Below, in pieces: positions 12,747 through 64,000 of a stretch of DNA of 64,000 bases (within the stretch, counting starts at the first letter, position 1; the number at the start of each line of letters is the position of its first letter). The notes under the pieces were generated by a model. The model was not told the origin of the DNA. It made no database searches and worked only from the letters and a program-made list of their open reading frames with translations. This DNA is from Spirochaetales bacterium (GTDB taxonomy: Bacteria; Spirochaetota; Spirochaetia; SZUA-6; DRHE01). Position numbers and translations under genes: made by a program. The DNA is taken from assembly GCA_030604195.1 (NCBI GenBank), contig JAUVWI010000004.1, positions 20,829 through 84,828 of the forward strand, written 5' to 3'.

Positions 12747-12768
12747 TATCCCAGCTTTTTTCTTAATT

Positions 12769-15339: not shown

Positions 15340-15397
15340 TTTAAAAACCTTCCATTTTTTATTTAATGTACGGTTTTGTCGTACATTTGTCAATTAT

Positions 15398-15748: not shown

Positions 15749-15835
15749 AACCGGTCTCCTTTTTTATTATTTGGCTATTTTCCCAAATTTACCCAAATCG
15801 GTCAAGTCCGTTCAAATAGAGCAATGGAAAAAGTC

Positions 15836-15873
15836 TTGACAATTCGAGTTATTATTGGCTATATTGCCAAATA
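15836..15873 (+). promoter_or_regulatory. promoter with palindromic operator (copy 1) of the ars unit
   Basis: TTGACA (15836-15841) is followed by an 18-nt spacer and TATATT (15860-15865). The palindrome TTGGC-tatatt-GCCAA (15855-15870) overlaps the -10. The 23-nt string attattggctatattgccaaata (15851-15873) recurs exactly at 17159-17181. Confidence 0.55.
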
Positions 15874-15913
15874 AGAAACAATTTATTCTAATCTGTAATA
15901 AGAAGAGGTTATA

Positions 15914-16363: not shown

Positions 16364-17073
16364 TCAGCCTTTTTACTACGATCTCCAGCATGCTCGAGGC
16401 CTCCCTGGTGCTCGCATTGCTCGGTGCTTTTTTGTGGGGCCTCGTAAGTGTGCTCTTAAGCCCATGTCACCTTGCCGGCATCCCTCTAATTGTCGGTTTT
16501 ATCAACGACCAGAGAAATGGTTCCAGCCGAAACCCGATAGTACTCTCCTCTGTCTTTGCCCTGGGAAATTTGGTAACCATCGCTGGAATCGGACTTGTTA
16601 CCGGGCTCATGGGCAAACTACTAGGTGACTTGGGCGGCTTCGGACGATATTTCCCTTTGGCGCTGTTTTTACTCTTCGGGCTCTACCTTTTAGGCGTACT
16701 ACCCCTTTCATTCGGCGAGACCTCACTTTTAGGTAAGGTCCGTATCCGGGGTCCATTGGCTGCGCTTCTTCTAGGGCTTCTTTTCGGAATCGCTCTCGGA
16801 CCCTGCTCGTTCGCTTTCCTTGCACCGGTAATCGGTATAGCGTTACAGGCTGCGGTAACCAACATGGCTTTTTCTATCGGATTGTTTCTGGCCTATGCTG
16901 TCGGACATTGCCTGGTGATAATCCTGGCCGGTTCTTTTTCAGAGTTGGTGCGTCAGTTCCTGAAGTGGGATGAACGATCCAGGGGAACACTTTGGATCAA
17001 GAGGGTATGCGGAGCCTCGTTGATAGCCGGAAGCCTCTATTTTTTGTTGACGGAAATCCTCAGAACAGTATAA
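16360..17073 (+). CDS. ccdA: cytochrome c biogenesis CcdA/DsbD-type thiol-disulfide transporter
   Basis: It is a polytopic membrane protein. The two conserved Cys-containing TM motifs are LSPCHLAGIPL and LGPCSFAFLAP. Confidence 0.8.
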   Translation: MISLFTTISSMLEASLVLALLGAFLWGLVSVLLSPCHLAGIPLIVGFINDQRNGSSRNPIVLSSVFALGNLVTIAGIGLVTGLMGKLLGDLGGFGRYFPLALFLLFGLYLLGVLPLSFGETSLLGKVRIRGPLAALLLGLLFGIALGPCSFAFLAPVIGIALQAAVTNMAFSIGLFLAYAVGHCLVIILAGSFSELVRQFLKWDERSRGTLWIKRVCGASLIAGSLYFLLTEILRTV

Positions 17074-30400: not shown

Positions 30401-30511
30401 CAGGGTATTATTTTCCCCTTGCCCTCCTGCATTGATATAACCGACCATGAGGACCAACAGGGAGATTGCTATGACCATCGAAGCCCTTTTCGGGCAGATC
30501 AAACTAAACAT
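27491..30511 (-). CDS. large secreted TPR-like/all-helical protein
   Basis: It has a signal peptide and TPR-like repeats at both ends (KDYNAAIILLTEIARGDP; GNYFEALAIVEKLL). It shares 1 nt with the start of the downstream phosphatase gene. Confidence 0.55.
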   Translation of the reverse strand: MFSLICPKRASMVIAISLLVLMVGYINAGGQGENNTLTLLDKANKLIEDKDYNAAIILLTEIARGDPEAFEETTNLIEKIREMKAEYNLKYEELIEVLFEQNDLENGLKIIKELQALDPRPNQATLEAIGQAKKGAELVYNLNRFNGIMDRALSLIKDGNFIEAVAVYISGYDLHKEDFDQAGYGNIIEASVNKSLARLSEAAETFRATAGALGTEINNLDIEVFPVDGLDIAGVEEEIRGLHEKLIQMIAFSKTVEDEASNLKLQNSHIKEVSPESKYDLFLHFAGQLALGRYGSEEQEGIGSVIEIMWEDLLLSLNNKIDRAASELYAGGLAEYRNSSFTAAQSAMEAANKVYSLALDSYSLWGFYIKVDPAMSLEEAGATLPQDKLKYFAAAQERIKETHDFPSLIDTLRELNNIALKTFDTREDFISEIENLDSYRGVLQDRATDWKLSLNQIDGIIKLGFDLAEAKSSAERMIGEIESLISRLNGAEATIITTAMAADATAAGQRYNSSRVKLAEGVGLAGGREVVVGESTRIEKYPNLALGIFNQVADEVSLLEKSIEGLRAWAGSDKAYILASYDVQQQLKRVDLLQENLEEMKLALLQHQAEAQNNLLLAQRFEREGNLRVDQARAGLRQDNFDRARENIQGALEAYDLSLEYREDENIRRRRDQELPALSQEIIDAENSVVVRQVRTLINRGRSLYNNSRFFEAERVLLQAKSRWADTNPEENSEIMLWLNFVRTALQANSGREIMESNPLFREISQLLNLAVEDYQGAKSLLELGKVRDAIDRLERAEEKIARILIPFPYNQEARILSLRIDQLKDKDAFAEKLTRYYNDARRKSNTNPQEAYVDLKDLEQIIPDYPGLKNSIYDLEIILKIRIPPPDPAKLAESRELFNKARVIVERNQRELFTIALEQLNRAIELNPDNQSAIEYKDRIQIAAGERVQPILGSVAQGQYRLAEEKFLAGNYFEALAIVEKLLQDEKNRNYPPLIELKKRIETRI

Positions 30512-48315: not shown

Positions 48316-49476
48316 TCAATATATTATTTTACCTTCCCACAAATCACTTAAGAAATCTAAATATGGAACTATTTCTATCCGCCCATGAATTCTTTTTTCC
48401 CTCTCATTGCATACAACCAAAGCCTTTCGCGGTGAATATTCCTCGATAAAAGCGGTCATGGGCAGTAAATCCTTTTTCCTGACATAACTGGTGCCTTTAA
48501 CTTCGATAGCCACTTCCCCCCTACCCAGAATGAAGTCAACCTCTATGCCTGATTTCGTCCGCCAGAAATTGATATCATAATGGAGTTCCTTATAGGAATT
48601 ATAAGCTGCTATCTCCATGAATATAAAATGTTCAAATGCTTTACCAAACAATTCACCTTTCTCTTCCTCTATCTTCCTCTTTGTTATGGATCCTGCAACT
48701 CCCACATCAAATAAGTAGAATTTTGATGCTTTTGTAATAATTTGCCGATTTTGCCTTCTCTTGAAGGGTTCAACCATGGTGCCCAGCAGAGTATCGACAA
48801 GGATTTGATAGTATTCTTTTACAGTTTTTGAATCCACACCGCACTCGCGCGCTATATTGGAGTAATTCGTAAGCTCACCGTGTGAGTACCCTATAGCATC
48901 AAAGAATCTGGAAAATGCCGGAATATTGCGGGTCAATCCCTCATTAAATACTTCCTCTTTTAAATAATCCTGGCAATAAGCAATTAAAGCTTTCTGATAA
49001 TTGTCCTGCAGATAATGAATCGGTATCATTCCATGATTCAAAGCTCTCAATAAATCCGGATGATCTAATTCAGGCGTGACAAGTGGAAACATTTCATAAC
49101 GCCATGCCCGGCCTCCCAGTAAATTGGCTTTCCCCCTTTTCAGTTTGCGTGCGCTTGATCCACATAGGATAAAGCGAATTCCCTTATTCTCGATCAACCA
49201 GTGAACTTCGTCCAGAATTTGTGGAACTTTCTGTACTTCATCAAGTATTACAGGATAATTCAAAACATCATCACCTTTTGCCAACAATCTTTCCCGCAAA
49301 AGAAAAGGTTTCTTGGAGATTTCAAGAAATAAATCGGTTTTCAGAAAATCGTACACCAGGCTGTGGGGGAATTTCATTTTCATATAAGTTGACTTACCTG
49401 TTTTTCTCGGCCCCCATAAAAATGCAGACTGCCCGGGTGGAAGATCTATATTAAGGATTCTTTCAATATTAGTCAT
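48316..49476 (-). CDS. AAA-type ATPase with C-terminal DUF4143/PD-(D/E)xK-like module (copy 1)
   Basis: Walker A is LWGPRKTGKST and Walker B is VILDEVQ. The C-terminal nuclease-like motif is GIEVDFIL..GEVAIEVKG. The start is set to the ATG at 49476 (MTNIERIL), which has AGGAG upstream. Confidence 0.8.
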   Translation of the reverse strand: MTNIERILNIDLPPGQSAFLWGPRKTGKSTYMKMKFPHSLVYDFLKTDLFLEISKKPFLLRERLLAKGDDVLNYPVILDEVQKVPQILDEVHWLIENKGIRFILCGSSARKLKRGKANLLGGRAWRYEMFPLVTPELDHPDLLRALNHGMIPIHYLQDNYQKALIAYCQDYLKEEVFNEGLTRNIPAFSRFFDAIGYSHGELTNYSNIARECGVDSKTVKEYYQILVDTLLGTMVEPFKRRQNRQIITKASKFYLFDVGVAGSITKRKIEEEKGELFGKAFEHFIFMEIAAYNSYKELHYDINFWRTKSGIEVDFILGRGEVAIEVKGTSYVRKKDLLPMTAFIEEYSPRKALVVCNEREKRIHGRIEIVPYLDFLSDLWEGKIIY

Positions 49477-49501
49477 ATTAGGATAATACTCCTGTCTAGT
49501 T

Positions 49502-49533
49502 ATACTATTTCGAAGTCTACTACGAAATAGTAT
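49502..49533. repeat. perfect 11-bp inverted repeat upstream of AAA ATPase copy 1
   Basis: ATACTATTTCG (49502-49512) and CGAAATAGTAT (49523-49533) are separated by 10 nt. The repeat lies 26-57 nt upstream of the preferred ATG at 49476. Confidence 0.6.
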
Positions 49534-49664
49534 CGATAGCAAGTAATATTTGAGAATGAGTGAAAATTCCTATCTTTACCGTTTTTTATCTCTTCAAGCA
49601 TCGGGGTGCCTTACTTTTAAACTTCAATTGTAATAAAAATTATTAAGTATTAGAATTAACAAGT

Positions 49665-51002
49665 ATGAATATACCCTTCAATATGATCAGAATTGCCTTC
49701 TTTTGGGGAATTATCAGCGCTGTTTCCCTGCCATTAGGCGCCTGCATAGGTCTTATGACCAGGCCGGGTAAAAAGATCACTTCTGCTCTTATGGCTTTTG
49801 GCGCCGGGGCTCTTCTCTTTGCGTTGACCATTGAGCTTTTCGCAGAAGCTTTGCACCACGGCAGGGAACATGGTAATGAAATTGTAATTATTACCATTGC
49901 AGGTGCATTGCTGGGAGGGCTTTTGTTTGATCTTCTTAATCAGATACTGAATAACCGCGGAGCTTTCCTGCGGAAGCTTACAATAACCAAAAAATACCTG
50001 ACAAAGCTCAAAACAGTAATGTCCAGGAAGCTCATTCTTGAACTTAGCCGGGTTCGCCTTTTACAATCCCTCCCTCCCCGGGATATAGCAAAACTCGTAA
50101 CACATATGAAAAAAGAGACCTTTGAGGCTGGAGAGACTATATTCCGTGAAGGAGAGCTGGGCTCGACACTCTACTTCATTATATCCGGTGAAGTGGAGAT
50201 ACTGAAAAAAGATCAATCGGGCCATGAACAATTTATTTCTTTGCTTGAGGAAAACGATACTTTTGGGGAAATGGCCCTCCTGAGCCATCGTCCGCGCAAC
50301 GCAACGGCCAGGGCAAGAACCAAAACATTAGTCCTGAAGGCCCTGCACAGCGATTTTAATGTTCTTCTATCAGAATCAGAAATTCTTCGCGAAACAACTC
50401 TTATGCTTTTCAACCAGAGGGCTGAAGATCTTTCCAATAAAACCTCGGATAGCCGTATCGAAAAATGGAAATCTGAGTGCTTGAAACATCTGGTGAATAT
50501 CCAGATACATCTTACGGACTATGAAATAACCGAGGAAAGCAAAAAAGCCGCTCTGAAAAAAGGCGCATCCTTTGCTATCTGGCTGGGTATTTTTCTTGAC
50601 GGTATTCAGGAATCACTCATTATCGGAATGCTCTCCGCCAGGATTACCGGAATAAGTCTGTCATTTATCGCCGGTGTTTTTTTAGCGAATCTCCCCGAAG
50701 CCATGTCAAGCGCCGTGGGCATGCGCCGGAGTGGTATGGGGTTCTTGAAAATCCTCTGGATGTGGGGCTCTCTCTGTCTGATTACCGGGATGGGAGCCGC
50801 AATAGGCGCTCTTTTATTCCCCGCACAACCAGTAATGACCGATTATTATTTGATTGCCGGAATAGAGGGATTGGCCGCAGGCGCTATGTTGACCATGATC
50901 GCCGAAACTATGCTTCCGGAAGCTTTCGAGCAGGGCGGAGCTATTGTCGGTTTCTCAACTCTGCTGGGCTTTTTAACAACCCTTGTTGTAAAGATTCTGT
51001 AA
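49665..51002 (+). CDS. ZIP-family-like membrane transporter with an inserted cyclic-nucleotide-binding domain
   Basis: The N-terminal 3 TM segments and C-terminal 5 TM segments have ZIP-like layout (IFLDGIQESLIIG; VFLANLPEAMS; IEGLAAGAMLTMI). The central roughly 130 aa are a cNMP-binding beta-roll (GETIFREGELGSTLYFIISGEVEI...FGEMALLSHRPRNATARA). Confidence 0.7.
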   Translation: MNIPFNMIRIAFFWGIISAVSLPLGACIGLMTRPGKKITSALMAFGAGALLFALTIELFAEALHHGREHGNEIVIITIAGALLGGLLFDLLNQILNNRGAFLRKLTITKKYLTKLKTVMSRKLILELSRVRLLQSLPPRDIAKLVTHMKKETFEAGETIFREGELGSTLYFIISGEVEILKKDQSGHEQFISLLEENDTFGEMALLSHRPRNATARARTKTLVLKALHSDFNVLLSESEILRETTLMLFNQRAEDLSNKTSDSRIEKWKSECLKHLVNIQIHLTDYEITEESKKAALKKGASFAIWLGIFLDGIQESLIIGMLSARITGISLSFIAGVFLANLPEAMSSAVGMRRSGMGFLKILWMWGSLCLITGMGAAIGALLFPAQPVMTDYYLIAGIEGLAAGAMLTMIAETMLPEAFEQGGAIVGFSTLLGFLTTLVVKIL

Positions 51003-51064: not shown

Positions 51065-52273
51065 TTACAGATTTAACCATGAGTTAATAAAGGTATTTTT
51101 GCGTTTCATTGCTTCCGGAGTGTTGCAGATAAGATAATTAGATTCGGAAATATTTAATAGTAGGCGTAGTTTTTCAAAATTTTTTATATGAGACGGTCCA
51201 ATGGTTGCACTGAGCTTTACTTCCACTGGAAGTAAAGCCAAATTTTTTTCAATCAGCAGATCAATCTCCCAAAGGTTCCGGTGATTTATATAATAACTAT
51301 TCAAATTATAATTGAAGTGCTTTTTATTCTTATGAAACTCAGATATTACAAAATTCTCAAAAAACTGACCTGCCACATTTCCTCTGATCAGATAATCGGC
51401 ATTATTTATACCGGCAAGATGTGCTGCCAAACCTGTGTCAATAAAATAGTATTTTGGTGTTTTAGTTATTCTCTTGCTGATATTCCGTGAGTATGGCTGT
51501 AATTTAAAAATGATAAAACCGGCTTCTAGTACTGAAAACCATTTTTTTATTGTAGGAACAGAAACGCCCAGATCTGATGAAAAACTTGAATAGTTCAAAA
51601 TGCTCGAACATCTTGCCGCTGCCAAAGTAATAAATTGATAGAAGATATCCAGGTTTCCTATATCATAAAGACTTTTTAAATCTCTCTCCAAATATGTTTG
51701 GATATAAGAGCTGAACCAGATATTTTTGTCCACCTCAGGGTTACTGATAATCTCAGGATAAAAACCGTTAAGAATAGTGGATCCGATTTCATGTTCAGAC
51801 GAAACTACCTGCTTTTCAGTTAGATTAATAAACCAATCGTCCCAGGTGTTGAAAGCTGTTTCCTTGGCCTCGGAATAAGAAAAAGGCAGTAATGTCATAA
51901 CAGCAACTCTTCCGGCCAATGATTCAGAGATGTTCTTCATTACTGCAAACTGTTGAGAACCTGTTAGGAAAAACATACCAGGCCGACGGTTATTGTCGAT
52001 TATTTCTTTTATATAAGGCAAGAGTTCCGGCACATATTGAAACTCATCAATTATCAGAGGATATTTATGCTTAGCCAAAAAATCCTGGGGATCATCTTTT
52101 GCCCATAACCGGTTATCCGGCTTTTCCATGGAAACAAAGTTAGCCTTATGGGAAAACATCCTTTTCAGCAGAGTTGTCTTGCCGGACTGCCGAGGTCCGA
52201 CAACTGCAAGAGCAGGAAAGGTTTTTATGGCCCTGTTTATTGGAAGTGATAATTGTCGTTTAAAATACTTCAT
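51065..52273 (-). CDS. AAA-type ATPase with C-terminal DUF4143/PD-(D/E)xK-like module (copy 2)
   Basis: Walker A is VVGPRQSGKTTLL and Walker B is LIIDEFQ. The C-terminal motif is WEIDLLIE...LLPVEVKLS. The start is set to the ATG at 52273, because the track start at 52282 is a TTG. Confidence 0.8.
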   Translation of the reverse strand: MKYFKRQLSLPINRAIKTFPALAVVGPRQSGKTTLLKRMFSHKANFVSMEKPDNRLWAKDDPQDFLAKHKYPLIIDEFQYVPELLPYIKEIIDNNRRPGMFFLTGSQQFAVMKNISESLAGRVAVMTLLPFSYSEAKETAFNTWDDWFINLTEKQVVSSEHEIGSTILNGFYPEIISNPEVDKNIWFSSYIQTYLERDLKSLYDIGNLDIFYQFITLAAARCSSILNYSSFSSDLGVSVPTIKKWFSVLEAGFIIFKLQPYSRNISKRITKTPKYYFIDTGLAAHLAGINNADYLIRGNVAGQFFENFVISEFHKNKKHFNYNLNSYYINHRNLWEIDLLIEKNLALLPVEVKLSATIGPSHIKNFEKLRLLLNISESNYLICNTPEAMKRKNTFINSWLNL

Positions 52274-52281
52274 TTGTGACA

Positions 52282-52310
52282 ATTTTAAAGTGTTGATTTA
52301 AATTTGTCAA
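52282..52310 (-). promoter_or_regulatory. sigma70-like promoter placed for a (near-)leaderless transcript of AAA ATPase copy 2
   Basis: On the minus strand TTGACA (52310-52305) is followed by a 17-nt spacer and TAAAAT (52287-52282). Only 8 nt separate the -10 from the ATG at 52273, and there is no RBS. Confidence 0.45.
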
Positions 52311-54069: not shown

Positions 54070-54489
54070 ATGAAAATCAAAAATGCTTTGTTCATTTTAT
54101 TAAGAATCTTAGTGGTCGTCGTTGTTTTTAACAGTTGCAGCCTATTCGGAACAAAAATAGATGAGCGTATCGATTCATTCATCGCTGACCTGAATTATGA
54201 TAGAAATAGTATTTATCTGAATTTTCATCCTTCAGAAACTGCTGATTATGATGCTATTAAAAACGTCGGTTTAACTTGGGATAATTGGTTTCCGACTCAT
54301 TCTATACAATATAGTATTTCAGGTCTTGATGATTCTGATTCAGATAGCGTAACCGCAACCATTAACAGCGAAGGAGTATGGGATTCTGAACCAGCAACCT
54401 TTAAAATGGCCAAGGACGGTTTCGACTGGATGATTGAGGAGCTTGACTTACCAGATAATTCAACATGGCCACATCCCTTAGTCGACTGA
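54070..54489 (+). CDS. hypothetical lipoprotein
   Basis: The lipobox is VFNSC and an AGGAGG RBS is present. No motif recognised. Confidence 0.5.
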   Translation: MKIKNALFILLRILVVVVVFNSCSLFGTKIDERIDSFIADLNYDRNSIYLNFHPSETADYDAIKNVGLTWDNWFPTHSIQYSISGLDDSDSDSVTATINSEGVWDSEPATFKMAKDGFDWMIEELDLPDNSTWPHPLVD

Positions 54490-54493
54490 TTCA

Positions 54494-54724
54494 TCAATCT
54501 TCCCACTGCTGAGCCTTGATCCATGCTTCTGTATTTTTAGAATCATCAGGGTTCATTTCAAGGCCCTTTATCCACTGATCTTCAAACTCTTTGATTTTCT
54601 TTTGCCGAAGCCAATTCTTGACCGCCTGGCGGATTATAGCAGAACGTGATAACCGGGATGATTCAGCAAAATGGTCCACTGCATTAAGCAGATTCTCATC
54701 AAAACTTATCTGGACATTTTTCAC
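54494..54724 (-). CDS. CopG/ribbon-helix-helix protein (orphan antitoxin-like)
   Basis: VQISFDENLLNAVDHFAESSRLSRSAIIRQAVKNWL is a canonical RHH pattern. It lies 22 nt downstream of the ParE-like toxin gene, with no toxin gene after it. Confidence 0.65.
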   Translation of the reverse strand: MKNVQISFDENLLNAVDHFAESSRLSRSAIIRQAVKNWLRQKKIKEFEDQWIKGLEMNPDDSKNTEAWIKAQQWED

Positions 54725-54746
54725 ATTCTATCCTTTTGTCTTATTT

Positions 54747-54989
54747 TTACCCATGCGGTCCGATAATAATCAATTCCATAACATTACCAAAGAAACGATA
54801 GGCTAATAGATACTGAACAGCCTGGATTTTAAACTTGTGCACGTAAACCCCGCGAAGATCACCTTTCTTTTCAGATCCGATATGGGGATTGTCCATAATT
54901 CTTCGGATTTCCTGGTCAAGTCTACTTTTTTCCCGTTTCGTGAATTTCTTGATTTTCCGGGCGAATGATCGAGATTGTAAGATTTTCAT
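54747..54989 (-). CDS. RelE/ParE-superfamily toxin (ParE-like)
   Basis: 80 aa with FARKIKKF..REKSRLDQEIRRIMDNPHIG.. KGDLRGVYVHKF...LLAYRF....ELIIIGPH, which follows the RelE/ParE fold pattern. It lies 11 nt after the antitoxin gene. Confidence 0.7.
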   Translation of the reverse strand: MKILQSRSFARKIKKFTKREKSRLDQEIRRIMDNPHIGSEKKGDLRGVYVHKFKIQAVQYLLAYRFFGNVMELIIIGPHG

Positions 54990-55000
54990 CTCATGAGCAG

Positions 55001-55219
55001 CTATCCGAAATTATATTCTGAAGGCTCTTCCTGTTCCAGTTCCTTAATGCCAATTAATATTTCCCGTATCAGAGTGTAATTTAAATCCGGGTTTTCTTCA
55101 GCGATTTTACCAATTCGCGCCCAGTGTTCAATCTGACCGGTAATAGATCGATTATCAATATTACTGTAGTTCCTGGCTTCCCGTAACAATTCATCGGATA
55201 CACGAACCGCTCCAGCCAT
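55001..55219 (-). CDS. ParD-like antitoxin
   Basis: 72 aa. VRVSDELLREARNYSNIDNRSITGQIEHWARIGKIAEENPDL resembles the ParD-like antitoxin family that pairs with ParE-like toxins. Confidence 0.65.
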   Translation of the reverse strand: MAGAVRVSDELLREARNYSNIDNRSITGQIEHWARIGKIAEENPDLNYTLIREILIGIKELEQEEPSEYNFG

Positions 55220-55265
55220 TTTAATGTTCTCCTTAATATAGTTTTGTAGCTAATATAGCACAAAA

Positions 55266-55281
55266 TGCAACAATTTGCAAC
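55266..55281. repeat. direct repeat TGCAAC-N4-TGCAAC in the parD-like promoter region (possible operator)
   Basis: TGCAAC occurs at 55266-55271 and 55276-55281, a 10-bp period. On the minus strand it overlaps a TTGCAA (-35-like), 17-nt spacer, TATATT arrangement upstream of the antitoxin gene. Confidence 0.35.
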
Positions 55282-55322
55282 AGATGAAAATTTTTTTAAC
55301 TCATACGCTGCCTGAACAATCC

Positions 55323-57452
55323 TCACTTTAGCCTCTCTGCCAGCAGGGTATAGCGCTTCTGGGTTTTATCATTCTTAACCGCAATGTTCAGGGCCTTTTT
55401 GCTACCCACGAGCACCACGAGCTTTTCCCCACGGGTAACAGCCGTATAGAGCAGGTTGCGCTGTAAGAGCAGGTAATGCTGGGTCATAACGGGAATAACA
55501 ACGGCCGGATACTCGGAGCCCTGGGCCTTATGCACGGAAACTGCATAAGCTAAAGTGATCTCATCGAGTTCCGCAGACTCATAGTCCACACTGCGGCCGT
55601 CAAATAATACCCGTACCCTGCGACCCTCTTCTTCAATACGGGTAATTCGTCCCATATCCCCGTTAAACACATCCTTCTTATAGTTGTTCCTTATCTGCAT
55701 TACCTTATCGTGTACTTTAAGTATTTTAGCGCCCCTTACTGTTCCTTTCCCGCCGGGATTCAGGGCATTCTGCAGCTCCCGATTCAGGTTCTCCACCCCT
55801 ATCAGCCCCCTGTGCATGGGGGAGAGCACCTGGATATCATCCACCGGGTCCAGGTTGAACCTCCTGGGTATGCGCTCTCTTACAAGCTCAATAATAATTC
55901 CGGCAACCTTTTCCGGCTCTTCCTGCTCAATAAAATAGAAGTCGCTCTCCGAGGCGGAATATTCAGGCGTTAAACCCACATTAATCCGGTGGGCGTTCAC
56001 AATGATCCGGCTCTCCCTGGCCTGGCGGAATATCTCGTTCAATTCCACCACCGTCACCCTGCCGGAGGCTATTATGTCTTTCAAGACGTTCCCGGCTCCC
56101 ACTGAGGGAAGCTGGTTCACATCTCCTATTAATATCAGGGAGGCATTCGCAGGAATGGCTTTCAGCAGATGATGCATCAAAATTGTATCGATCATGGAGG
56201 CTTCATCCAGGATTATCAGGTCGCACCGCAGGGGATCCGACTGATTCTTCTGAAATCCCCCTGCCCGCATATTATACTCAAGCAGCCGGTGAATAGTTTT
56301 TGCCTGGTATCCTGTTGCCTCACTCATTCGCTTGGCTGCTCTGCCTGTAGGCGCGGCCAGCATAATCCTGGTTCCGATCCTGGAAACAATGGCCAGAATG
56401 GTCTTTATAATGGTGGTCTTTCCCGTTCCGGGTCCGCCGGTAATAACTAAAAGCTTATCTTTTAAGGCGCGCCTGACTGCTTCCGCCTGTTTAGCGGCCA
56501 GGGTAATATCGAGCCTCTGCTGGACCCACTGGAGAGCTCTCTCCGAGTCAACCTCTCTCATGCTCCTGCTGTCATTCTGAAGTTCAATCAGATTAGCTGC
56601 AATTCCTGTTTCTGAAACATAAAATGGGGGCAAATAGACTGACCCTTTATACAGCACCAGCTTTTCATTCCTGCTTAATTCATCCAGTGCACCGGCAATA
56701 ATCTCTCTATCAATCTGCAGAATTTTCTGGCTTCTCTGTATAAGCATGTCAGATGGGTAATAGACATGCCCTTCATCAGTACACTGGTTCAGTACATGGA
56801 GCAGTCCCGCCTCGGCCCGTTCTTCGGAATCCCTGGCAAATCCCATGTTTTCCGCAATTTTGTCCGCGGTTATAAAGCCGATTCCAAAAATATCCGTTGC
56901 CAGGCGGTAGGGATTCTCCTTCACAACTTCTACAGCGTGGTTTCCATACCGCTTGAATATTTTGGCCGCATAACCCGGGCTTACACCATAGGACTGCAGG
57001 AAAATCATAACCCCCCGTATTTCTTTTTGCTCATCCCAGGCTTCACTGATCATCTTCAGCCTTTTCCTGCCGATTCCCTCCACCTGGGTTAATTTCTCTA
57101 TTTTGTCATCAATAACCGATAGGGTTTTTTCTCCGAATTTACCTACTATCCGGCGGGCCATCTCTGCCCCGATTCCCCGGATCAGGCCGGAAGCCAGGTA
57201 TTTTTCTATACCCACAACGGCTGCCGGCACTGAAGTTTTATAGCTTGATATCTTAAACTGGCGGCCGTATTTGGGATGGCTATTCCATTCTCCCTTCATG
57301 AAGATCATTTCTCCGGGTATGGGAGATACGAGGTTCCCTACAATCGTTATAAGCTCATCATGGCCATCAACCCTGACCCGGGCTATGGTGTAACCGTTCT
57401 CTTCATTGGTGTAGGTAATGCTCTCTATGTGTCCTTCAAGTTCTTCAATCAT
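55323..57452 (-). CDS. recD2: RecD2-type SF1B DNA helicase (RecD/TraA family)
   Basis: Walker A is VITGGPGTGKTT and Walker B is LIILDEASMID. Also present are GDVNQLPSVG, AVSVHKAQGSEY, an N-terminal OB-like region, and HhH (GIGAEMARRIV, GIGRKR). The preferred start is the ATG at 57452 (MIEELEGH), which shares its A with the upstream TGA stop. Confidence 0.85.
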   Translation of the reverse strand: MIEELEGHIESITYTNEENGYTIARVRVDGHDELITIVGNLVSPIPGEMIFMKGEWNSHPKYGRQFKISSYKTSVPAAVVGIEKYLASGLIRGIGAEMARRIVGKFGEKTLSVIDDKIEKLTQVEGIGRKRLKMISEAWDEQKEIRGVMIFLQSYGVSPGYAAKIFKRYGNHAVEVVKENPYRLATDIFGIGFITADKIAENMGFARDSEERAEAGLLHVLNQCTDEGHVYYPSDMLIQRSQKILQIDREIIAGALDELSRNEKLVLYKGSVYLPPFYVSETGIAANLIELQNDSRSMREVDSERALQWVQQRLDITLAAKQAEAVRRALKDKLLVITGGPGTGKTTIIKTILAIVSRIGTRIMLAAPTGRAAKRMSEATGYQAKTIHRLLEYNMRAGGFQKNQSDPLRCDLIILDEASMIDTILMHHLLKAIPANASLILIGDVNQLPSVGAGNVLKDIIASGRVTVVELNEIFRQARESRIIVNAHRINVGLTPEYSASESDFYFIEQEEPEKVAGIIIELVRERIPRRFNLDPVDDIQVLSPMHRGLIGVENLNRELQNALNPGGKGTVRGAKILKVHDKVMQIRNNYKKDVFNGDMGRITRIEEEGRRVRVLFDGRSVDYESAELDEITLAYAVSVHKAQGSEYPAVVIPVMTQHYLLLQRNLLYTAVTRGEKLVVLVGSKKALNIAVKNDKTQKRYTLLAERLK

Positions 57453-60400
57453 CAGGGATAGAGCCACTCCGCCCTGAAAATTGTACACTCATAGGCTCCG
57501 CCTTTCCCATGTTTCAGTCCGTCGCGCGTCAGGGAGAGGCCGTGGTCCGTGGTCAGAACTAAAGGGCGCTTCTGCTCCGTACAGAGCCTGCAGAATGACG
57601 GCAGCTCCTTCTCTATGATGTTCTTCAATATTCCGGCCATATCGGCAAGCCGCAGTTCACGGCTGTGGGCTGCCCGGTCAATAATGGCCAGACGAATAAC
57701 AGCGCATTTGCCGGGGTCCAGGGGCAGCACATGATCAACCAGGGAATGTTCTTCATCACCTGAAAGGTTAAAATAGAGAATATCCCGCAGGGAAAACTCT
57801 TCCACCGGATCACCTTTAAAGCCGAAGAGTCCGGCAATGGCGCTGCTTGTAAAGGGCTCCGCACCCAGCCTGGCCCATTGCCTGGATAAGGTTCCGGGCA
57901 ATAGCTCAATTTTAGCCATCGCTTCCAGCCAGAGATCAGGCGAAGCACCATCCACAATTATCACTAAAGGCTTCTCTTCAAGGGAAATGGGCAGAACAGG
58001 AGATAGTTCGGAAAGCCACTTTTCTCCTGAACAGGAAAGCTCATCAACCATGCCGAATGCCTGCTCTTTCAGAGCCCTGGTTGTCCAGGGGTCTGATATC
58101 AGCTCACTCACGGGAATACGCACTGCCAGCCTTTCAGGGTATGGCATAGCCAGGCCGCTATGGATCAGCTTTGCTATTTCAAGAGAGTTTTTAATGCTTT
58201 CCGCCCGCTCAGGAAGTGCATGAAGGGATTTCGCTTCAATATTTTCAGGCAGGGCGGCGCCCTTTAGAATTCGTTCGGCAAGCATAATCCAGGCCGACCG
58301 CACAGCCTGGGTATGGAATCTTTCTGTGGAAATGAAGCTATAGAGCTTTTCAGTATCCAGGAACTCCAGAGGCTCGCTTAAACGAGCAGAGGGAAATTGC
58401 TCCTCGAGCATCATCTCAATTCTCTTGATCTCATCAGGTAGAGCTGCCTCCGGCCGGTCGTCAAGGGGCCGCAATGCCGGGTCTGTACCGAAAAGCTCAC
58501 TGTGAAGCAGGGGCCACCAGCCCAATAACTTTGGGCCGCCTTCGGAACGGGGCAGAGAGTCATCCTCAATGGCAATCAATATTTCTTCATCGGGCTCTTT
58601 ATCTGTCTTCCCGGCTTCAGGACCGGCAAGCCATTCCCGGAAAAGAGCTGAAACCCGTTCAGAGGGAAGCCTCCTGCCGGCAAGTTCTTTTACAAGATCG
58701 CTTAATTTCCTGTTGTGTATGGAGATGCGTCCTGCCAGTGATTGGGATATCTCATCAGCAGTATCCACATCTATAGTACGCGTCAGGGTGGAAGCCTTGA
58801 GCTTGCCTGATTTCAGGGTTTGCCCAAGTTCTTTCAGGCGCCCGGCTATTCCAGGATTTACATCCTGCAGGGCATAGGAACGGACAGCCAGGGATTCCAG
58901 AACTTTGGGATTGCGCAGTATTTCAATGTAGATTTCCAGATAATGGTTAATCTTCTCTTCCGGATTTTCAACCATGGCAATTTCCGCTCTGTCACCCGGC
59001 TGAAAACCGCAACCGCACACCGGGGAGCGCATGAGTTCTTCTGATATCTGCCTTGTGCACTGCTTTATATCAGGAGCATTCATCTCCCTTATAAACTCAT
59101 CAATACCCGGAGGTCTGTCCAGGGTTTCAATCCGGGCCAGCCGCATTATGGTATCCAGGGCTCTTCCGGCATTTTTTGCCAGAGGCGCCCGGCGCTGGGA
59201 TATATAGTACTCGTTGTGCTCTTTGGCATAGAGAGCGATATAATGATCGCGAAAATGGCTGAAAACCACGCCCAGATGCTCTCCGGAATCATTTACCACC
59301 CCTGTTTCAGGCTTTTCCAGCAGTTTTAAAACTGCCTGGCCAAGTTCTTCTATGGCGCTCTCCTTTTCGGCTGCCTTGCAAACCGCCTGGTGGCGTACAT
59401 AATGGTTGATGGCAACAAATTCTTCCGAAGCATTAGCCAGGAATCGATTCAATTTCTTTACAAACCTGATATCCTCTGCATTGAGGCCCGTGCCGCGCCA
59501 GCTCTGCAGAAATCTTTCAAGCCCCTCCCTGGCTGAGTAGGAAACTTTTATTTCCTTGACCAGGTTATCCAGAGCAGTAAGTTTCTGATCCAGGGAGCGG
59601 ATATCAAAAGCCTTGAAGGAAGAATAGTCAGCTATCCTTGAAAGATCTGAGCGTGTCTCCTGGGCCAGGTTTAATGTTGTATCACGAAACTTGATGAGTT
59701 CTTTCCAGGTCTCACGTTGCTGCCTCAAGCCGAAAGACTCCCATCCTGAAGATGATGTCAGGAAGGTGCATTCTTCGGTAAGGGTTGCCAGGTCATGCTC
59801 ATTTATCAGCTCACCCAGGGTAATCTCTTCAGCCTTTTCCAGGGAGTTAAGGGTTAAAAATTCCAGGGGAATGCTCCTCCCTCCCCTGCGTGCTGTAATC
59901 AGCCCGCCTGCGGTCAGTGAGGCAAGCAAGAATAAAGCCGTATCTCTGGGTAGACCAAAGGGACCGTTTTCAAGCTCAGCAAGCAGGTCAGGAACAGGTG
60001 TGGCGCCGGATGGATTCAGCAGTCCGAAGAAGAAGGACAGCAGGGGATGCCCCCTGGTATCGGGAGAGAAAATATAGGAACCGCGCTTAAGCTCAACCAG
60101 GCCCAGGGGCACGGCTAACCCGTCTATGGCAGCGCTTAGAGACCTGGAACGTGCTTCACTTAAGGAGATGCTGCCGGGTATAATAAAATCATCAAGCAGT
60201 TGCAGATAGCTCCGCGGGGTGGGCGTAAACCTTCGCGGCGCAACCTCCCTGAACCTGGGATACCTGTTTCCCAGTATAACCTCTCCGGCAGCCTCCAAAA
60301 GGCGGTCAAAGCGTTTAAGCTGACGAACCGCGGTGTCAACACGTATGGAGCGGTCGGTGAAATCGCCTGAATACAAGGCCTCCAAAGCGGCCTGGCAGGC

Positions 60401-62284
60401 TGCCGGTGCAAGGCGTTTTATTCGTTCCTGGGCCATTGGAATCAGCGGCGCCTCGGCAGGATTGGCGGGCTTCAGCTCCTGCAGAGTAAGTTTTGCCGCC
60501 AGAAACTCCTTGAGTATGCTCTCTTTCCCGGGAACCGGGATCTGCCACACTGCCGTATGCTCGCAGTCCGACTTCCCTGTGCCGATGGTCATGACTACTG
60601 CAAAATCGAACTTTTCCGAATCTATCCGGTGAGCTAAACGATCAGAGAAATCTTTTTCATCATCCTGGTAAAGAAAACAGATAAGAACCTTGCGAGTGCT
60701 CGAGTTCCAGCTTACCAGCCGCTGAGCTCCCCTTTCCATAAGAACCCTGCCGGGCCATGATTCCGATTCCTGAAGCCCGGCCAGGGCCGCTATTAAGAGT
60801 CTTGAATCATCATCTTGAAGTTCCCCGGCAAGCCTTTTGATCCTGGCATCAAGGGTCTTGCCCGGATCATCTTCGGTTACAATTTCATAGAGAGTCTTCA
60901 TGGGATCGCCCGATTCGGCCGGCTGCTTTCTGAGAAAGTGGCTTGAAGCTGCGACCGGATCAAGCAGTGTTTCCGATATGAAGAGGGCATTCATCTGCGG
61001 GGACTGAAAGTCCAGGCTGCAGGCCGCCAGTTCAGCCAGCTCATCTGCCGCAGGTTCTGAAGCAGTGGGATGTATCTTGTAGAGAACAAGCATTCGAACC
61101 AGCCTTTTAGCCAGTAAGATGTCCTCACTGCTTTCCAATTCCCGCTCAATGACCTCGTCAAGATGGGGAATGATATGGCGGGGATAGATATTGAATGATG
61201 AAAATTCAGCCAGACGCCCGGCGAAATGATCATATATACTGTCCGGAGCCAAAAGCTCCGGTGCAGGGCGGTCGAGAATAGAGGGGATATTCCGCCGGCT
61301 GTCTCCTGCAATACGGGAGTAAACAAAATCCACTACACCGCGGTGCTGGGAAAAAAGCTCTCCCAGTCCGTCAAGCAGTGTGATTGTTGTGGGATGAACC
61401 GGGTAAGTCATTTTGAAATCATCAAGGGAAGAGGAAAAGGTGGGAAACTGCTGCCTGTACATTTCATAGATTCGGTAGATCTCCTCATCCGCTCCCTGCT
61501 TGCGGCGTACAAGCCTCCCGGATATGAGCGAGCGGATGTGCACGGTAGATAGAGTGAGTTTTATAGGGAAGCGGTCCTTGATTTTACGAAAGATGGCCTG
61601 GGATATATCTCCGGTTCTTTCAATGCTCTCCTGCACAGCACAAATAATCCATAGCGGTTCACCGGATGTCATCTCTCCTAAAAGCTGCAGGGTACGGGCA
61701 TCTTCATTTAAAACCTGAGTTGAAGGTTTGGAGCGGAAAAACTCGGAAAGCTCATCTATCAGCAGGACCAGACCGTCAAAACCGGCCGATCTGACCGAGG
61801 ATATCACCCGGCTGAAGGTTTCATGCCTCTCCTTTGAGGAGATCAGAGCTGCCAGGTCAACTTTTTTGCCGTGCAGGGCAAGCGCCTTTTCCACGGATTC
61901 GATTATGATCTGTTCCAGGGGCACGGAAGCTCTATAGTTGATTAAAGATATATCAACCGGCAGATACTTTGCCTTGGATTCACTCAAGCGTTTCAGACCG
62001 CCGTGACCTTCGGAAAGGATATGCCTGCCCTTCTCTGCGGCAAGCCAGGCATAGAGAGCAGCCAGAAAATGGGATTTACCCGAGCCGAAATCACCCTGCA
62101 GGAAATATCCCTGTCCGCGGGCATTAAGCAGGGCAGCGGCTATGACAGTGCAGTGGGAGGCAACCTCATTGGTAAAAACAAAACTCATCGCAATCTCTGC
62201 GGATTTAAGCCGCCCCTCTTCAAGCTGTATTACAGTTCTTACCGGGGGTATCTCAACAAGATCGCCGATCTTTACCACACTCAC
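57452..62284 (-). CDS. 1610-aa fusion: BrxC/PglY-like P-loop ATPase N-terminus, long helical middle, PglZ-like (alkaline-phosphatase-fold) C-terminus
   Basis: Walker A is GDFGSGKSHFL (aa 64-74) and Walker B is LVLLIDELSEF (aa 172-182). The YPxHP motif is TYPVHPTTITLL (aa 293-304). The C-terminus carries PLVIIVDGASPDLW (D1445), EPFTSSAIAGLFG (T1479) and LVLTTDHGLS (D1580/H1581). The GTG start overlaps the stop of the TPR gene. Confidence 0.6.
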   Translation of the reverse strand: MSVVKIGDLVEIPPVRTVIQLEEGRLKSAEIAMSFVFTNEVASHCTVIAAALLNARGQGYFLQGDFGSGKSHFLAALYAWLAAEKGRHILSEGHGGLKRLSESKAKYLPVDISLINYRASVPLEQIIIESVEKALALHGKKVDLAALISSKERHETFSRVISSVRSAGFDGLVLLIDELSEFFRSKPSTQVLNEDARTLQLLGEMTSGEPLWIICAVQESIERTGDISQAIFRKIKDRFPIKLTLSTVHIRSLISGRLVRRKQGADEEIYRIYEMYRQQFPTFSSSLDDFKMTYPVHPTTITLLDGLGELFSQHRGVVDFVYSRIAGDSRRNIPSILDRPAPELLAPDSIYDHFAGRLAEFSSFNIYPRHIIPHLDEVIERELESSEDILLAKRLVRMLVLYKIHPTASEPAADELAELAACSLDFQSPQMNALFISETLLDPVAASSHFLRKQPAESGDPMKTLYEIVTEDDPGKTLDARIKRLAGELQDDDSRLLIAALAGLQESESWPGRVLMERGAQRLVSWNSSTRKVLICFLYQDDEKDFSDRLAHRIDSEKFDFAVVMTIGTGKSDCEHTAVWQIPVPGKESILKEFLAAKLTLQELKPANPAEAPLIPMAQERIKRLAPAACQAALEALYSGDFTDRSIRVDTAVRQLKRFDRLLEAAGEVILGNRYPRFREVAPRRFTPTPRSYLQLLDDFIIPGSISLSEARSRSLSAAIDGLAVPLGLVELKRGSYIFSPDTRGHPLLSFFFGLLNPSGATPVPDLLAELENGPFGLPRDTALFLLASLTAGGLITARRGGRSIPLEFLTLNSLEKAEEITLGELINEHDLATLTEECTFLTSSSGWESFGLRQQRETWKELIKFRDTTLNLAQETRSDLSRIADYSSFKAFDIRSLDQKLTALDNLVKEIKVSYSAREGLERFLQSWRGTGLNAEDIRFVKKLNRFLANASEEFVAINHYVRHQAVCKAAEKESAIEELGQAVLKLLEKPETGVVNDSGEHLGVVFSHFRDHYIALYAKEHNEYYISQRRAPLAKNAGRALDTIMRLARIETLDRPPGIDEFIREMNAPDIKQCTRQISEELMRSPVCGCGFQPGDRAEIAMVENPEEKINHYLEIYIEILRNPKVLESLAVRSYALQDVNPGIAGRLKELGQTLKSGKLKASTLTRTIDVDTADEISQSLAGRISIHNRKLSDLVKELAGRRLPSERVSALFREWLAGPEAGKTDKEPDEEILIAIEDDSLPRSEGGPKLLGWWPLLHSELFGTDPALRPLDDRPEAALPDEIKRIEMMLEEQFPSARLSEPLEFLDTEKLYSFISTERFHTQAVRSAWIMLAERILKGAALPENIEAKSLHALPERAESIKNSLEIAKLIHSGLAMPYPERLAVRIPVSELISDPWTTRALKEQAFGMVDELSCSGEKWLSELSPVLPISLEEKPLVIIVDGASPDLWLEAMAKIELLPGTLSRQWARLGAEPFTSSAIAGLFGFKGDPVEEFSLRDILYFNLSGDEEHSLVDHVLPLDPGKCAVIRLAIIDRAAHSRELRLADMAGILKNIIEKELPSFCRLCTEQKRPLVLTTDHGLSLTRDGLKHGKGGAYECTIFRAEWLYP
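57455..57973 (-). other. PglZ-like domain region of the fusion protein (aa ~1438-1610)
   Basis: The order and spacing of the DG metal motif, the T/S-S nucleophile segment and the DHG motif match the PglZ / alkaline-phosphatase superfamily. This was read directly from the translation. Confidence 0.55.
61385..62284 (-). other. BrxC/PglY-like ATPase core of the fusion protein (aa 1-300)
   Basis: The core has a P-loop (nt 62063-62095), Walker B (nt 61751-61774) and YPVHP (nt 61391-61405). Confidence 0.6.
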
Positions 62285-63330
62285 TGTATTTTCTCCAGTC
62301 TGGCTTTTAGCCGGTTAATACGCCCATAGAGTGATCTCTCTTCAGGGAATAGACCCAGGAGCCGGTTATAAAAATTAATAGCCCCTTCTATTTCTCCTAT
62401 ACGACTGCACGCGGCCTCATAGCTTGAGCGGAGGTACTTATTCTTTGGTTCCGCTCTTAAGAGCTCTTCCAGCATGGGAATGGCTTCTTTCTCACGTCCC
62501 GTTTTTGCCAGGGTAAAGGCTGTTTTTTGCTGTATACGCAGATTAGCTCCGCTTGTTTCTATCTTTGAATAGGCTTTTATTGCCTCATCCGGTCTGCCCG
62601 CCCTTCTGCACAGAGATGCATATATTTCCTTGTATACAGGGGGAAGTGAAGGAATACGGGCCATCTTTCCCATCTTGCCGAGTACGCTGTCCAGGCCGTC
62701 ACGCAGAATCTCAAGTTCCGTAAGCTCCCAGAGAGCATTATGGTTATGCGGTTGAAGCTGCAGCCACTTATTGCACTCTTCGATAGCCTCATCATAACTG
62801 CCAAGACCAGCCAGGGCTTTAGCGCGGTAACGATATTTATCCTGTTCAGCCATCTCCCAGGTAGATATATTTAAAAGGATCTCCTGCCAATTTTTGAGCT
62901 TTGAAAGACATGCCAAAACTCCTCTCTGTGAGCGCTGCGAAAGCCGTTCAAATTTTAGGGTATCTTTATAATAATTCAGAGCCTCTTCCGGCCTGTCCAG
63001 GCCTGAAAGCGCATCCGCTGCGGCAATGACCGCATAGGGGTTGGCACTATCCATGGACAGGGCCTCTTCTGCGACCTTCAGAGCCGACTCATATTCAGAA
63101 GCACGGATAAGAGCCACGGCCTGCTGGGTAAGCCAGAAGACATTCTGCCCGGATCCATCCAGCTGCTCACGTTCTGCATAACGCGCCGCTTCTGAATATT
63201 TGCCCAGGTTCATAAGCTTCCTGAACTCGCTGTAAGCTTCGGACACCTGCTTATCTCCACTTAAAAATATAAGCCTTTTGGGCGGCTTGCGGCCAACAGT
63301 AGCTGCAAAGGCAGACCGGTAACCTGCCAC
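62281..63330 (-). CDS. tetratricopeptide-repeat protein
   Basis: At least 7 TPR-like units are present (for example YSEAARYAE, YESALKVAEEALSMDSANPYA, PEEALNYYKDTL, YDEAIEECNKWLQLQPHN, PDEAIKAYSKI, EKEAIPMLEELLRAEPKN, IEGAINFYNRLLGLFPE). The start is GTG and is uncertain. Confidence 0.75.
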   Translation of the reverse strand: MAGYRSAFAATVGRKPPKRLIFLSGDKQVSEAYSEFRKLMNLGKYSEAARYAEREQLDGSGQNVFWLTQQAVALIRASEYESALKVAEEALSMDSANPYAVIAAADALSGLDRPEEALNYYKDTLKFERLSQRSQRGVLACLSKLKNWQEILLNISTWEMAEQDKYRYRAKALAGLGSYDEAIEECNKWLQLQPHNHNALWELTELEILRDGLDSVLGKMGKMARIPSLPPVYKEIYASLCRRAGRPDEAIKAYSKIETSGANLRIQQKTAFTLAKTGREKEAIPMLEELLRAEPKNKYLRSSYEAACSRIGEIEGAINFYNRLLGLFPEERSLYGRINRLKARLEKIQ

Positions 63331-63344
63331 TCTTCAATAAGGTA

Positions 63345-63374
63345 ATTTTAGTACAGGATAGATGATAATGACAA
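63345..63374 (-). promoter_or_regulatory. candidate promoter of the TPR / ATPase-PglZ / helicase operon
   Basis: On the minus strand TTGTCA (63374-63369) is followed by an 18-nt spacer and TAAAAT (63350-63345), 14 nt upstream of the GTG at 63330. Confidence 0.35.
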
Positions 63375-63429
63375 TGGCTTGGATTAAAAAAGAGACCATT
63401 TACTGAGACTTCTGTAAATAAAAAAATGC

Positions 63430-63458
63430 TTGACAATATAGAATACATATGGTATACA
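63430..63458 (+). promoter_or_regulatory. candidate promoter of the divergent dehydrogenase gene
   Basis: TTGACA (63430-63435) is followed by a 17-nt spacer and TATACA (63453-63458), about 50 nt upstream of the ATG at 63511. Confidence 0.45.
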
Positions 63459-63510
63459 AAATTTATACAAGAAGAATATGAATTGTATTATTCATAAACA
63501 GGGGAAATGC

Positions 63511-64000
63511 ATGAACGCTATGAAAATTGCAGTGATGGGGGGAGGAAATGGTTCTCATACGATAGCCGCAGATCTTTCTCTTAAAGGCCATCAGGTTAAT
63601 ATGTTCGAACTAGAGATATTTGCAGAGAGGATGAAAGAGGTGTTTAAATCTCGCCAGATAGAAATATCAGGTGTAGCAGGTCAAGGAAAAGCCCAACTCA
63701 ATCTTGTTACAACGGATATTAAGGAGGCAATTGAAGGTGTTCAGATAATCTTTATTCCCCTACCTGGATTTGCAATTAGTACATATGCCGAACTATTAGC
63801 GCCATATTTGAGAGAGGATCAGCTGGTAATAATTATGCCGGGCACATTGGGAACTCTTGAATTCAGCAATATTCTTAAGAAGAAAGGTAATAAAAAGGAT
63901 ATTGTATTAGCTGAGATCGGAGGCCTTCCTTTTGCTACTAGATTGGTGGGTTCCGGTAAAGTAAAAACATTTCATATCAGGTCTGTTTGCCCATTTGCCA
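63511..64000 (+). CDS. NAD(P)-dependent octopine/nopaline (opine) dehydrogenase-family protein, 3'-truncated by window edge
   Basis: This ORF is not in the ORF track because it has no stop within the window. I translated it by hand and found it open to nt 64000. It has an AGGGGA RBS and the Rossmann motif KIAVMGGGNGSHTIAADLSLKGHQV. LAEIGGLPFATRL is typical of the family. Confidence 0.6.
   Translation, partial: MNAMKIAVMGGGNGSHTIAADLSLKGHQVNMFELEIFAERMKEVFKSRQIEISGVAGQGKAQLNLVTTDIKEAIEGVQIIFIPLPGFAISTYAELLAPYLREDQLVIIMPGTLGTLEFSNILKKKGNKKDIVLAEIGGLPFATRLVGSGKVKTFHIRSVCPFA

Follow-up and report, generated by a model that had tools for sequence, protein, structure and literature searches.

A 64,000-nt stretch of the genome of a Spirochaetales bacterium (GenBank assembly GCA_030604195.1, contig JAUVWI010000004.1, positions 20,829 to 84,828 of the forward strand), referred to below as the window, carries on its minus strand three adjoining genes (open reading frames, ORFs, at 55323-63330) for a tetratricopeptide repeat (TPR) protein, a 1610-aa ATPase-PglZ fusion protein and a RecD2-type helicase. 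An earlier sequence-only reading had taken the three together as a methylase-less system related to bacteriophage exclusion (BREX). In our analysis the core unit is two genes, the TPR gene and the fusion gene, and not three. We consider this two-gene module to be, more likely than not, a methylase-less BREX-related variant consisting of a TPR-gated ATPase-PglZ fusion, with RecD2 outside the core. The fusion, the operon, the relation to BREX and the missing methylase were thus retained from the earlier proposal, and RecD2 as a component was given up.

The module is defined by the linkage of its two genes. The fusion protein was found to have more than 100 full-length relatives (42-92% identity), and 79 loci came from a scan in which each species was represented by one genome, with the family present in about 84 of 185,579 species genomes. 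The loci (individual ones are cited as L plus a number) span Spirochaetota, Desulfobacterota, Fibrobacterota/Chitinivibrionales, Kiritimatiellota, Verrucomicrobiota, Lentisphaerota and Planctomycetota. Neighbours were assigned by tblastn and ORF clustering, and loci with upstream sequence were counted as informative. In 73 of the 75 informative loci the gene immediately upstream encodes a specific TPR homologue, full length and 37-91% identical. A median of 8 nt separates it from the fusion gene in 62 loci, 51 of which have a gap of at most 30 nt, and since this tight junction recurs across phyla, it is more than chance would produce. A reverse search with the TPR-family alignment returned 80 relatives, and all of those with downstream sequence adjoin a fusion gene. 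Given that the linkage holds in 73/75 loci and is reciprocal, the TPR and fusion genes are each other's exclusive and obligate partners, which is a stronger association than had been proposed for the TPR gene. Pfam detects TPR repeats only in the partner protein. As to single loci, the order is inverted in L298, with the fusion gene ahead of the TPR gene; in L029 the place of the TPR gene is taken by a 274-aa alpha/beta-hydrolase ORF, which overlaps the start of the fusion gene; and in L076 (~10000-16700) both the fusion gene and recD2 are fragmented, which suggests pseudogenes or poor assembly.

In the window, the three minus-strand genes and both start/stop overlaps were confirmed in the sequence where the sequence-only reading had placed them (Table 1), and a GGAG lies 8 nt upstream of the GTG start of the fusion gene (62284-62282). 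The ATG at 57452-57450, which opens the helicase N-terminus MIEELEGH, is the best-supported start of that gene and had already been favoured over the longest-ORF start; it is preferred here because the TIGR01448 model starts 6 residues after it and homologues align from residue 1. A TGATG-type junction between fusion gene and recD2 is also present in locus L051. For the TPR gene the longest-ORF start is corrected to GTG 63246, most likely the true start, since homologues are 318-335 aa long and their alignments begin at residues 27-33 of the long ORF; a GGAG (63258-63255) precedes this codon by 8 nt. No credible terminator was found in the sequence between the three genes. The earlier view that TPR, fusion and recD2 genes form a co-directional, translationally coupled operon is supported. 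Its upstream border is a divergent dehydrogenase-like gene on the plus strand, starting at 63511, and the gap between that gene and the TPR gene is the sole intergenic space for an operon promoter. The promoter candidate that had been noted upstream of the TPR gene (63374-63345) is present and is the top sigma-70-like match in 54400-63600 (10/12), in a region where such matches show a mild excess only (18 found vs 10.8 +/- 3.3 in shuffles).

The fusion protein opens with an AAA+ ATPase domain of the BrxC/DUF6079 type. The Pfam DUF6079 profile, which corresponds to BrxC, matches aa 5-385 with an E value of 8e-40, the PADLOC BrxC model matches at 114 bits, and the family profile run against the PDB returned the Acinetobacter BrxC entries 9zn5_A and 9zdx_C (E 1e-13, aa 33-335). 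Walker A (GDFGSGKSH, aa 64-72) and Walker B (DELSEF, aa 177-182) are in place, and their motif residues are invariant in the family alignment (A1). On these sequence matches the N-terminal domain is clearly homologous to BrxC; the scores against the NCBIfam models are 71 bits for BREX_BrxC (cut-off 400) and 23 for PglY (cut-off 1700). The family-specific middle region was modelled with AlphaFold2 (aa 330-1300; predicted local distance difference test, pLDDT, 83; predicted template modelling score, pTM, 0.51) and contains a helical bundle, an alpha/beta module, two winged-helix-like units and a long coiled-coil-like helical stretch, a domain order that would resemble the published architecture of BrxC (10.1101/2025.10.09.681413, section 14). 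A cysteine cluster within it (Table 1) is a possible metal-binding apex in the model. Pfam PF26383.1 appears in the precomputed annotation of some relatives of the fusion protein (P0001, P0002, P0005, P0022 and others).

A model of the C-terminal 321 aa, built on 24 aligned relatives (pLDDT 93, pTM 0.88), gave a helical linker followed by a minimal PglZ-like core of the alkaline-phosphatase superfamily. A Foldseek search of this model against the PDB placed PorX PglZ chains at ranks 1-17 (E 8e-8 to 3e-6, probability 1.0), followed by the BREX PglZ chain 9zn5_B of the Acinetobacter complex (E 3e-4), with EptC/MCR-1, alkaline phosphatases and NPPs ranking below the PglZ structures. The alignments to PorX span 300-516 columns, more than the core itself, and probably take in the helical linker for that reason, the aligned ranges not being part of the output. 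Residues D1445, T1479, D1536-x3-H1540, D1580-H1581-G1582 and H1592 are invariant across the family and would fit a bimetal site with a Thr nucleophile, with roles read from the superfamily pattern and not from a superposition; together with the Walker A and B motifs, they indicate active enzymes. When 35 family members were compared with Pfam, 6 gave weak PglZ matches (best E 0.015) and 12 gave Metalloenzyme matches. In addition, a C-terminal profile was run against 1.84 billion representative proteins and returned 104, nearly all of them members or fragments of the fusion family, with the PglZ-like domain always C-terminal among these matches. In the 4 most distant ones Pfam PglZ is the only Pfam domain, and the distant relative P0205 passes the Pfam PglZ model (27.1 bits, gathering cut-off 25). 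A C-terminal profile run against the PDB sequences returned nothing meaningful. Judged by model and profiles together, the 1610-aa protein is an ATPase-PglZ fusion with a divergent, minimal PglZ, and the kinship to BREX BrxC and PglZ that had been suggested for it is upheld by the DUF6079 and PDB BrxC matches on one side and by Foldseek on the other.

The third gene of the window operon encodes the helicase that had been described as RecD2-like, and the NCBIfam model TIGR01448 matches it with 936.6 bits (cut-off 500) over model positions 1-713. The Pfam set is complete (OB_YrrC, HHH_RecD2, AAA_19/30, SH3_13 and UvrD_C_2), and by these profile matches the protein is a true, standard RecD2 at the equivalog level. 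Downstream of the pair, recD2 was found in 19 of the 21 Spirochaetota loci with enough sequence, the pair standing without it in L002 and L072, vs 0 of 34 loci of other phyla, in which the downstream gene varied (PIN, ArgRS, aldehyde oxidoreductase, MCP and others). The best 80 RecD2 relatives of the window protein (61-81% identity) come almost all from Desulfobacterota, and one of them adjoins the pair, namely that of the metagenome-assembled genome (MAG) with locus L051. Among the matches listed, 80 further RecD2 loci from many phyla, one Spirochaetia genome included, have no pair nearby, and of the 159 further RecD2 loci sampled overall in other genomes the L051 MAG is the only one with RecD2 beside the pair. 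A scan with a spirochaete RecD2 profile gave mostly loci of other phyla and added, among the matches listed, one spirochaete RecD2 (L237), with no pair beside it. Since linkage is confined in this way to Spirochaetota and unlinked orthologues are widespread, RecD2 is not part of the core: it is a widespread helicase of the ordinary kind that is tied to the pair in a single phylum, and not a defining component. The arrangement expected from the earlier proposal, a fusion gene flanked by a TPR gene and a RecD-like helicase, therefore held across phyla on the TPR side and failed outside Spirochaetota on the helicase side, while the accompanying caveat that the helicase might merely be co-transcribed was borne out by the unlinked, ordinary distribution of RecD2.

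At least in spirochaetes, RecD2 could be an integral helicase subunit of a three-component system, equivalent to BrxHI/BrxHII, as had been suggested, and several observations point that way. In 13 of 14 spirochaete loci recD2 follows the fusion gene with a gap between -8 and 118 nt; the window and L051 have only the TPR-fusion-RecD2 block in common (73-81% aa identity), with all flanks different; and the adjacency of fusion gene and recD2 outlasts insertions in L004 and L046. A second type of helicase (SNF2, see below) is also coupled to the pair, so that helicase recruitment is recurrent, and helicases replace BrxL in non-type-I BREX (PMC13326643). We nevertheless regard such a system as rather unlikely, for besides its absence from 34 loci outside the phylum and from two within it, the helicase is a standard equivalog that is 61-65% identical to unlinked RecD2s of Desulfobacterota vs 53-66% to the linked spirochaete ones, and Desulfobacteraceae MAGs with the pair have their RecD2 on another contig (L014/L145, L066/L117). 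A neighbour-joining tree parts linked from unlinked copies at one split that matches taxonomy, and because of this coincidence the tree cannot separate a dedicated from a housekeeping helicase. The PADLOC scan of the three window proteins gave no matches to BREX accessory models (BrxA, BrxB/F, BrxL, BrxD, BrxHI/HII, PglW), the helicase matching RecD-type models and not BrxH. Operon position in a single lineage is insufficient to count RecD2 as a component. The RecD2 behind the pair in L004, L007, L008, L027 and L046 is shorter, with 568-673 aa; their alignment to the window protein begins no earlier than about residue 136-168, and they are without the N-terminal OB(YrrC)/first HHH part.

The surroundings of the pair were analysed by neighbour clustering in the 79 loci and by a census of neighbour genes, both covering the locus surroundings, and neither gave a conserved methyltransferase; within the window, none was found in the operon or in the ORFs scanned over ~9 kb downstream, the window ending ~650 nt upstream. 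In these surroundings the pair is thus methylase-less, as had been proposed. Likewise, clustering and census gave no conserved PAPS reductase, BrxA, BrxB or BrxL near the pair. The only conserved neighbours are the TPR gene, RecD2 in spirochaetes and an SNF2-family helicase in 13 of the 79 loci. The last, a protein of ~900 aa with SNF2-rel_dom and Helicase_C domains, has its gene next to the TPR gene on the upstream side in 11 loci, frequently with an overlap, and is inverted and downstream in 2 more, L002 and L022. By taxon the 13 loci comprise 11 of Spirochaetota, 1 of Desulfobacteraceae and 1 of Verrucomicrobiia; no copy was found in the window. This helicase may, by analogy, be an optional component comparable to BrxHII. 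Genes for RNase D with an HRDC domain (Desulfobacteraceae) and for Dus and HD-domain proteins (Fibrobacter) were rejected as components, since each reflects narrow-lineage synteny beside housekeeping genes such as that for ThrRS.

What the pair does was judged from these comparisons. Its homology to BREX, its rarity, its patchy occurrence in seven phyla and the toxin-antitoxin genes beside the window copy speak for a role against foreign DNA, which seems somewhat likely. A series of results weighs against the reading of the pair as a BREX-related module of this kind. Pfam PglZ (PF08665) gave no match in the window protein, either over the full length (E<=0.01) or in the C-terminal 250 aa (E<=1), and for this reason the PglZ identity rests on structure and transitive profile links. 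The middle-region model gave no PDB match at E<=0.001, full-length BrxC (9zdx) included, so that the BrxC-likeness of these ~900 aa stays an inference and, past the ATPase domain, would be architectural only. Two loci, L023 (9986-14947) and L029 (9989-14953), have a full-length fusion gene with no TPR-family gene upstream. The spirochaete three-gene block is kept while its flanks change, which leaves room for functional recruitment of RecD2 there. The 143 non-redundant neighbour genes of the census are mostly metabolic or housekeeping genes, with few toxin-antitoxin or defence genes (AbiE, HepT, PIN, PDC-S01), and gave no convincing signal of defence-island enrichment; genomic context was accordingly not used as evidence for defence. 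Finally, searches of known plasmids and phages gave no fusion-family member, and all hosts of the pair are uncultured MAGs.

A part of these results would also suit a rare accessory module outside defence, serving DNA maintenance or repair or nucleotide signalling, in which PglZ might hydrolyse cyclic or linear oligonucleotides as PorX does, or take part in DNA-end processing with neighbouring enzymes. The top structural match, PorX, is a signalling phosphodiesterase; neighbours are mainly of the housekeeping kind, and the recurrent ones are housekeeping-type nucleic-acid enzymes (RecD2, the SNF2 helicase, RNase D with HRDC); there is no modification gene and no copy on phages or plasmids; and the family tree, as judged by identities, is broadly congruent with taxonomy. 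Such a function is nonetheless unlikely, as a family found in so few genomes (~84/185,579) and proteins (104/1.84 billion) and scattered over seven phyla is not housekeeping-like, the pairing of a BrxC-type ATPase with PglZ is known from BREX and BREX-related loci (10.1101/2025.10.09.681413), and toxin-antitoxin genes adjoin the window copy. That the overlaps are incidental and three unrelated genes adjoin by chance is highly improbable: compact bacterial genomes have many short overlaps and the promoter match alone is not significant, but chance adjacency of the TPR/fusion pair is already refuted by the co-occurrence data, in which the two genes adjoin reciprocally in >60 loci of seven phyla with unrelated flanks.

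The methylase-less BREX-related variant is therefore the explanation that we prefer, one that lacks the modification half of BREX, as no methyltransferase, PAPS reductase, BrxA, BrxB or BrxL accompanies the pair. By analogy we infer the fusion protein to be an ATP-controlled, DNA-associated nuclease or phosphodiesterase. Its ATPase part (ORC/Cdc6-clade AAA+, BrxC-type) would bind DNA and self-associate under the control of ATP, as BrxC does, and the covalently joined PglZ domain would nick or cleave nucleic acid in the manner of type I BREX PglZ. The TPR partner, made in a fixed ratio with the fusion protein, would gate or target the PglZ activity, either by restraining the enzyme or as a sensor of a protein or structure that comes from an invader. 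With no epigenetic mark to rely on, discrimination of self from non-self would have to be set by the trigger and not by DNA modification. In Spirochaetota, recD2 would at most serve as an accessory peculiar to the lineage, which might unwind DNA starting at nicks made by PglZ. A more far-reaching and quite tentative version is that the pair is a self-contained, modification-independent restriction module, that is, the restriction half of BREX in two polypeptides, in which the TPR protein senses the invader, the covalent fusion replaces the BrxB-mediated contact of BrxC with PglZ, and lineages differ in the helicase that they add (SNF2 in several phyla, RecD2 in Spirochaetota).

The mechanism by which BREX halts phage has yet to be settled, and the literature of 2025-2026 centres on the BrxB:BrxC:PglZ complex and the PglZ nuclease (PMC13326643). 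An ATPase-PglZ fusion kept without a methyltransferase in seven phyla argues that both activities belong to one machine and that this machine can be of use in the absence of epigenetic self-marking. Should the cloned pair restrict phage or plasmids, it would offer a minimal two-protein model of the BREX restriction step, and would point towards a new type of trigger, acting through the TPR partner.

Table 1. Features of the operon and of the fusion protein in the window (domain rows give the coding positions), with the SNF2 helicase genes of other loci
Feature	Position	Strand	Details
TPR ORF, longest form	62281-63330	-	349 aa
TPR partner gene, probable extent	62281-63246	-	start GTG 63246, 321 aa
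Fusion gene (BrxC-like ATPase / PglZ-like)	57452-62284	-	1610 aa; elsewhere annotated only 'DUF6079 family protein' or 'hypothetical'
Predicted N-terminal AAA+ ATPase domain, BrxC/DUF6079 type	61130-62272	-	aa 5-385
Family-specific middle region	58418-61129	-	aa 386-1289
Cys cluster C1076 / C1090-G-C1092	59009-59059	-	invariant (alignments A1, A4); loop between helices in model
Predicted helical linker before phosphatase core	57995-58417	-	aa 1290-1430; seven helices in pLDDT 93 model
Predicted minimal PglZ-like core, alkaline-phosphatase superfamily	57455-57994	-	aa 1431-1610, ~180 aa
Helicase ORF, longest form	55323-57488	-	721 aa
recD2 from ATG 57452	55323-57452	-	SF1B helicase, 709 aa
GTGA overlap, TPR stop / fusion start	62281-62284	-	TGA 62283-62281, GTG 62284-62282, CAG-TGA; read in sequence
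TGATG junction, fusion stop / recD2 start	57450-57454	-	TGA 57454-57452, ATG 57452-57450, CCC-TGA-TG; one base in common
Sigma-70-like promoter candidate TTGTCA-18 nt-TAAAAT	63345-63374	-	upstream of TPR gene; consensus match only
SNF2 helicase genes of other loci	e.g. L064:835-3600, L037:6154-8937		L002, L004, L010, L022, L024, L027, L028, L037, L046, L061, L064, L076, L077

Several other genes of the window were noted. Downstream of recD2, also on the minus strand, lie genes for a ParD-like antitoxin (55001-55219) and a ParE-like toxin (54747-54989), with an RHH/CopG gene (54494-54724) beyond them, and this group (54494-55219) has a promoter-like site of its own at 55280-55252. Two paralogous ATPases with AAA_14 and DUF4143 domains are encoded on the minus strand at 48316-49542 and 51065-52282; L004, L005 and L013 have homologues at most a few kb from the module, and that of L004 sits between the fusion gene and recD2. 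An ORF on the plus strand (49665-51002) joins a cyclic-nucleotide-binding domain to a ZIP-family metal transporter domain. On the minus strand, positions 32719-35691 encode a 990-aa protein of the DNA polymerase III alpha type (PHP, pol3 alpha, finger, HHH_6 and OB domains), which may be an error-prone paralogue of the DnaE2/ImuC type. Two very large minus-strand genes at 22953-30511 are apparently translationally coupled, their stop and start sharing position 27491; the products have 1006 aa (weak TPR only) and 1512 aa (BNR-like, HAMP, SpoIIE PP2C phosphatase).

Full-text searches returned no description of a TPR + BrxC-PglZ module from the library searched, and the main text of 10.1101/2025.10.09.681413 makes no mention of TPR, RecD or a BrxC-PglZ fusion. 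The pair, as a fused, methylase-less relative of BREX, appears to be previously undescribed, and it was compared with the systems closest to it. BREX (types 1-6, with a core of BrxC/PglY, PglZ and PglX) is akin to the module in that the latter has an ATPase domain matching the BrxC/DUF6079 profiles and a PglZ-type domain whose metal site is intact. BrxB, BrxC and PglZ form the core complex of BREX, and PglZ of type I acts as a metal-dependent nuclease (PMC13326643); BrxC is described in the literature as an AAA+ protein that binds DNA, is regulated by ATP and self-associates. In BREX, BrxC and PglZ are complexed through BrxB (PMC13326643), whereas in the module both are in one polypeptide, the ATPase is far under the NCBIfam BrxC cut-off and the PglZ part is a minimal core of ~180 aa with its linker. 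Module loci are without the PglX methyltransferase, PAPS reductase, BrxA, BrxB, BrxL and BrxH, and the obligate TPR partner is a feature unknown in BREX. With no modification component and none of the accessory genes, the module is not a BREX system by membership.

BrxC-type ATPases paired with PglZ have been described in BREX and in BREX-related anti-invader loci (10.1101/2025.10.09.681413). Among these, the BR systems consist of a DUF499 ATPase, an N6-methyltransferase and an SNF2 helicase (Rakesh & Krishnan, 10.1101/2025.10.09.681413); they too are non-canonical loci built around BrxC-like ATPases, and BR type 3 also pairs such an ATPase with PglZ. The module differs from them in that its ATPase matches DUF6079 and not DUF499, it has no methyltransferase, and the SNF2 helicase is present in a minority of its loci. 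The HerA/FtsK-centred system has seven components, HerA, GNAT, TGT, STAND, DUF4007, DUF6079 and PglZ (10.1101/2025.10.09.681413), and likewise combines a BrxC-like ATPase with PglZ; only the DUF6079-like and PglZ-like parts are shared, and these are fused in the module, while the other five are not conserved neighbours of it.

PorX, a response regulator of the type IX secretion system whose PglZ domain is an oligonucleotide phosphodiesterase (10.1101/2025.10.09.681413, section 16), is the closest structural counterpart of linker and core, with a bimetal site and a Thr nucleophile. It has a receiver domain, acts in two-component signalling and has no AAA+ ATPase, unlike the fusion protein. The window helicase, for its part, corresponds over its full length and in every domain to the RecD2 family (TIGR01448; RecD2/YrrC of Deinococcus/Bacillus); its sequence is unremarkable, and only its operon position behind the TPR-fusion pair, in spirochaetes, is unusual.

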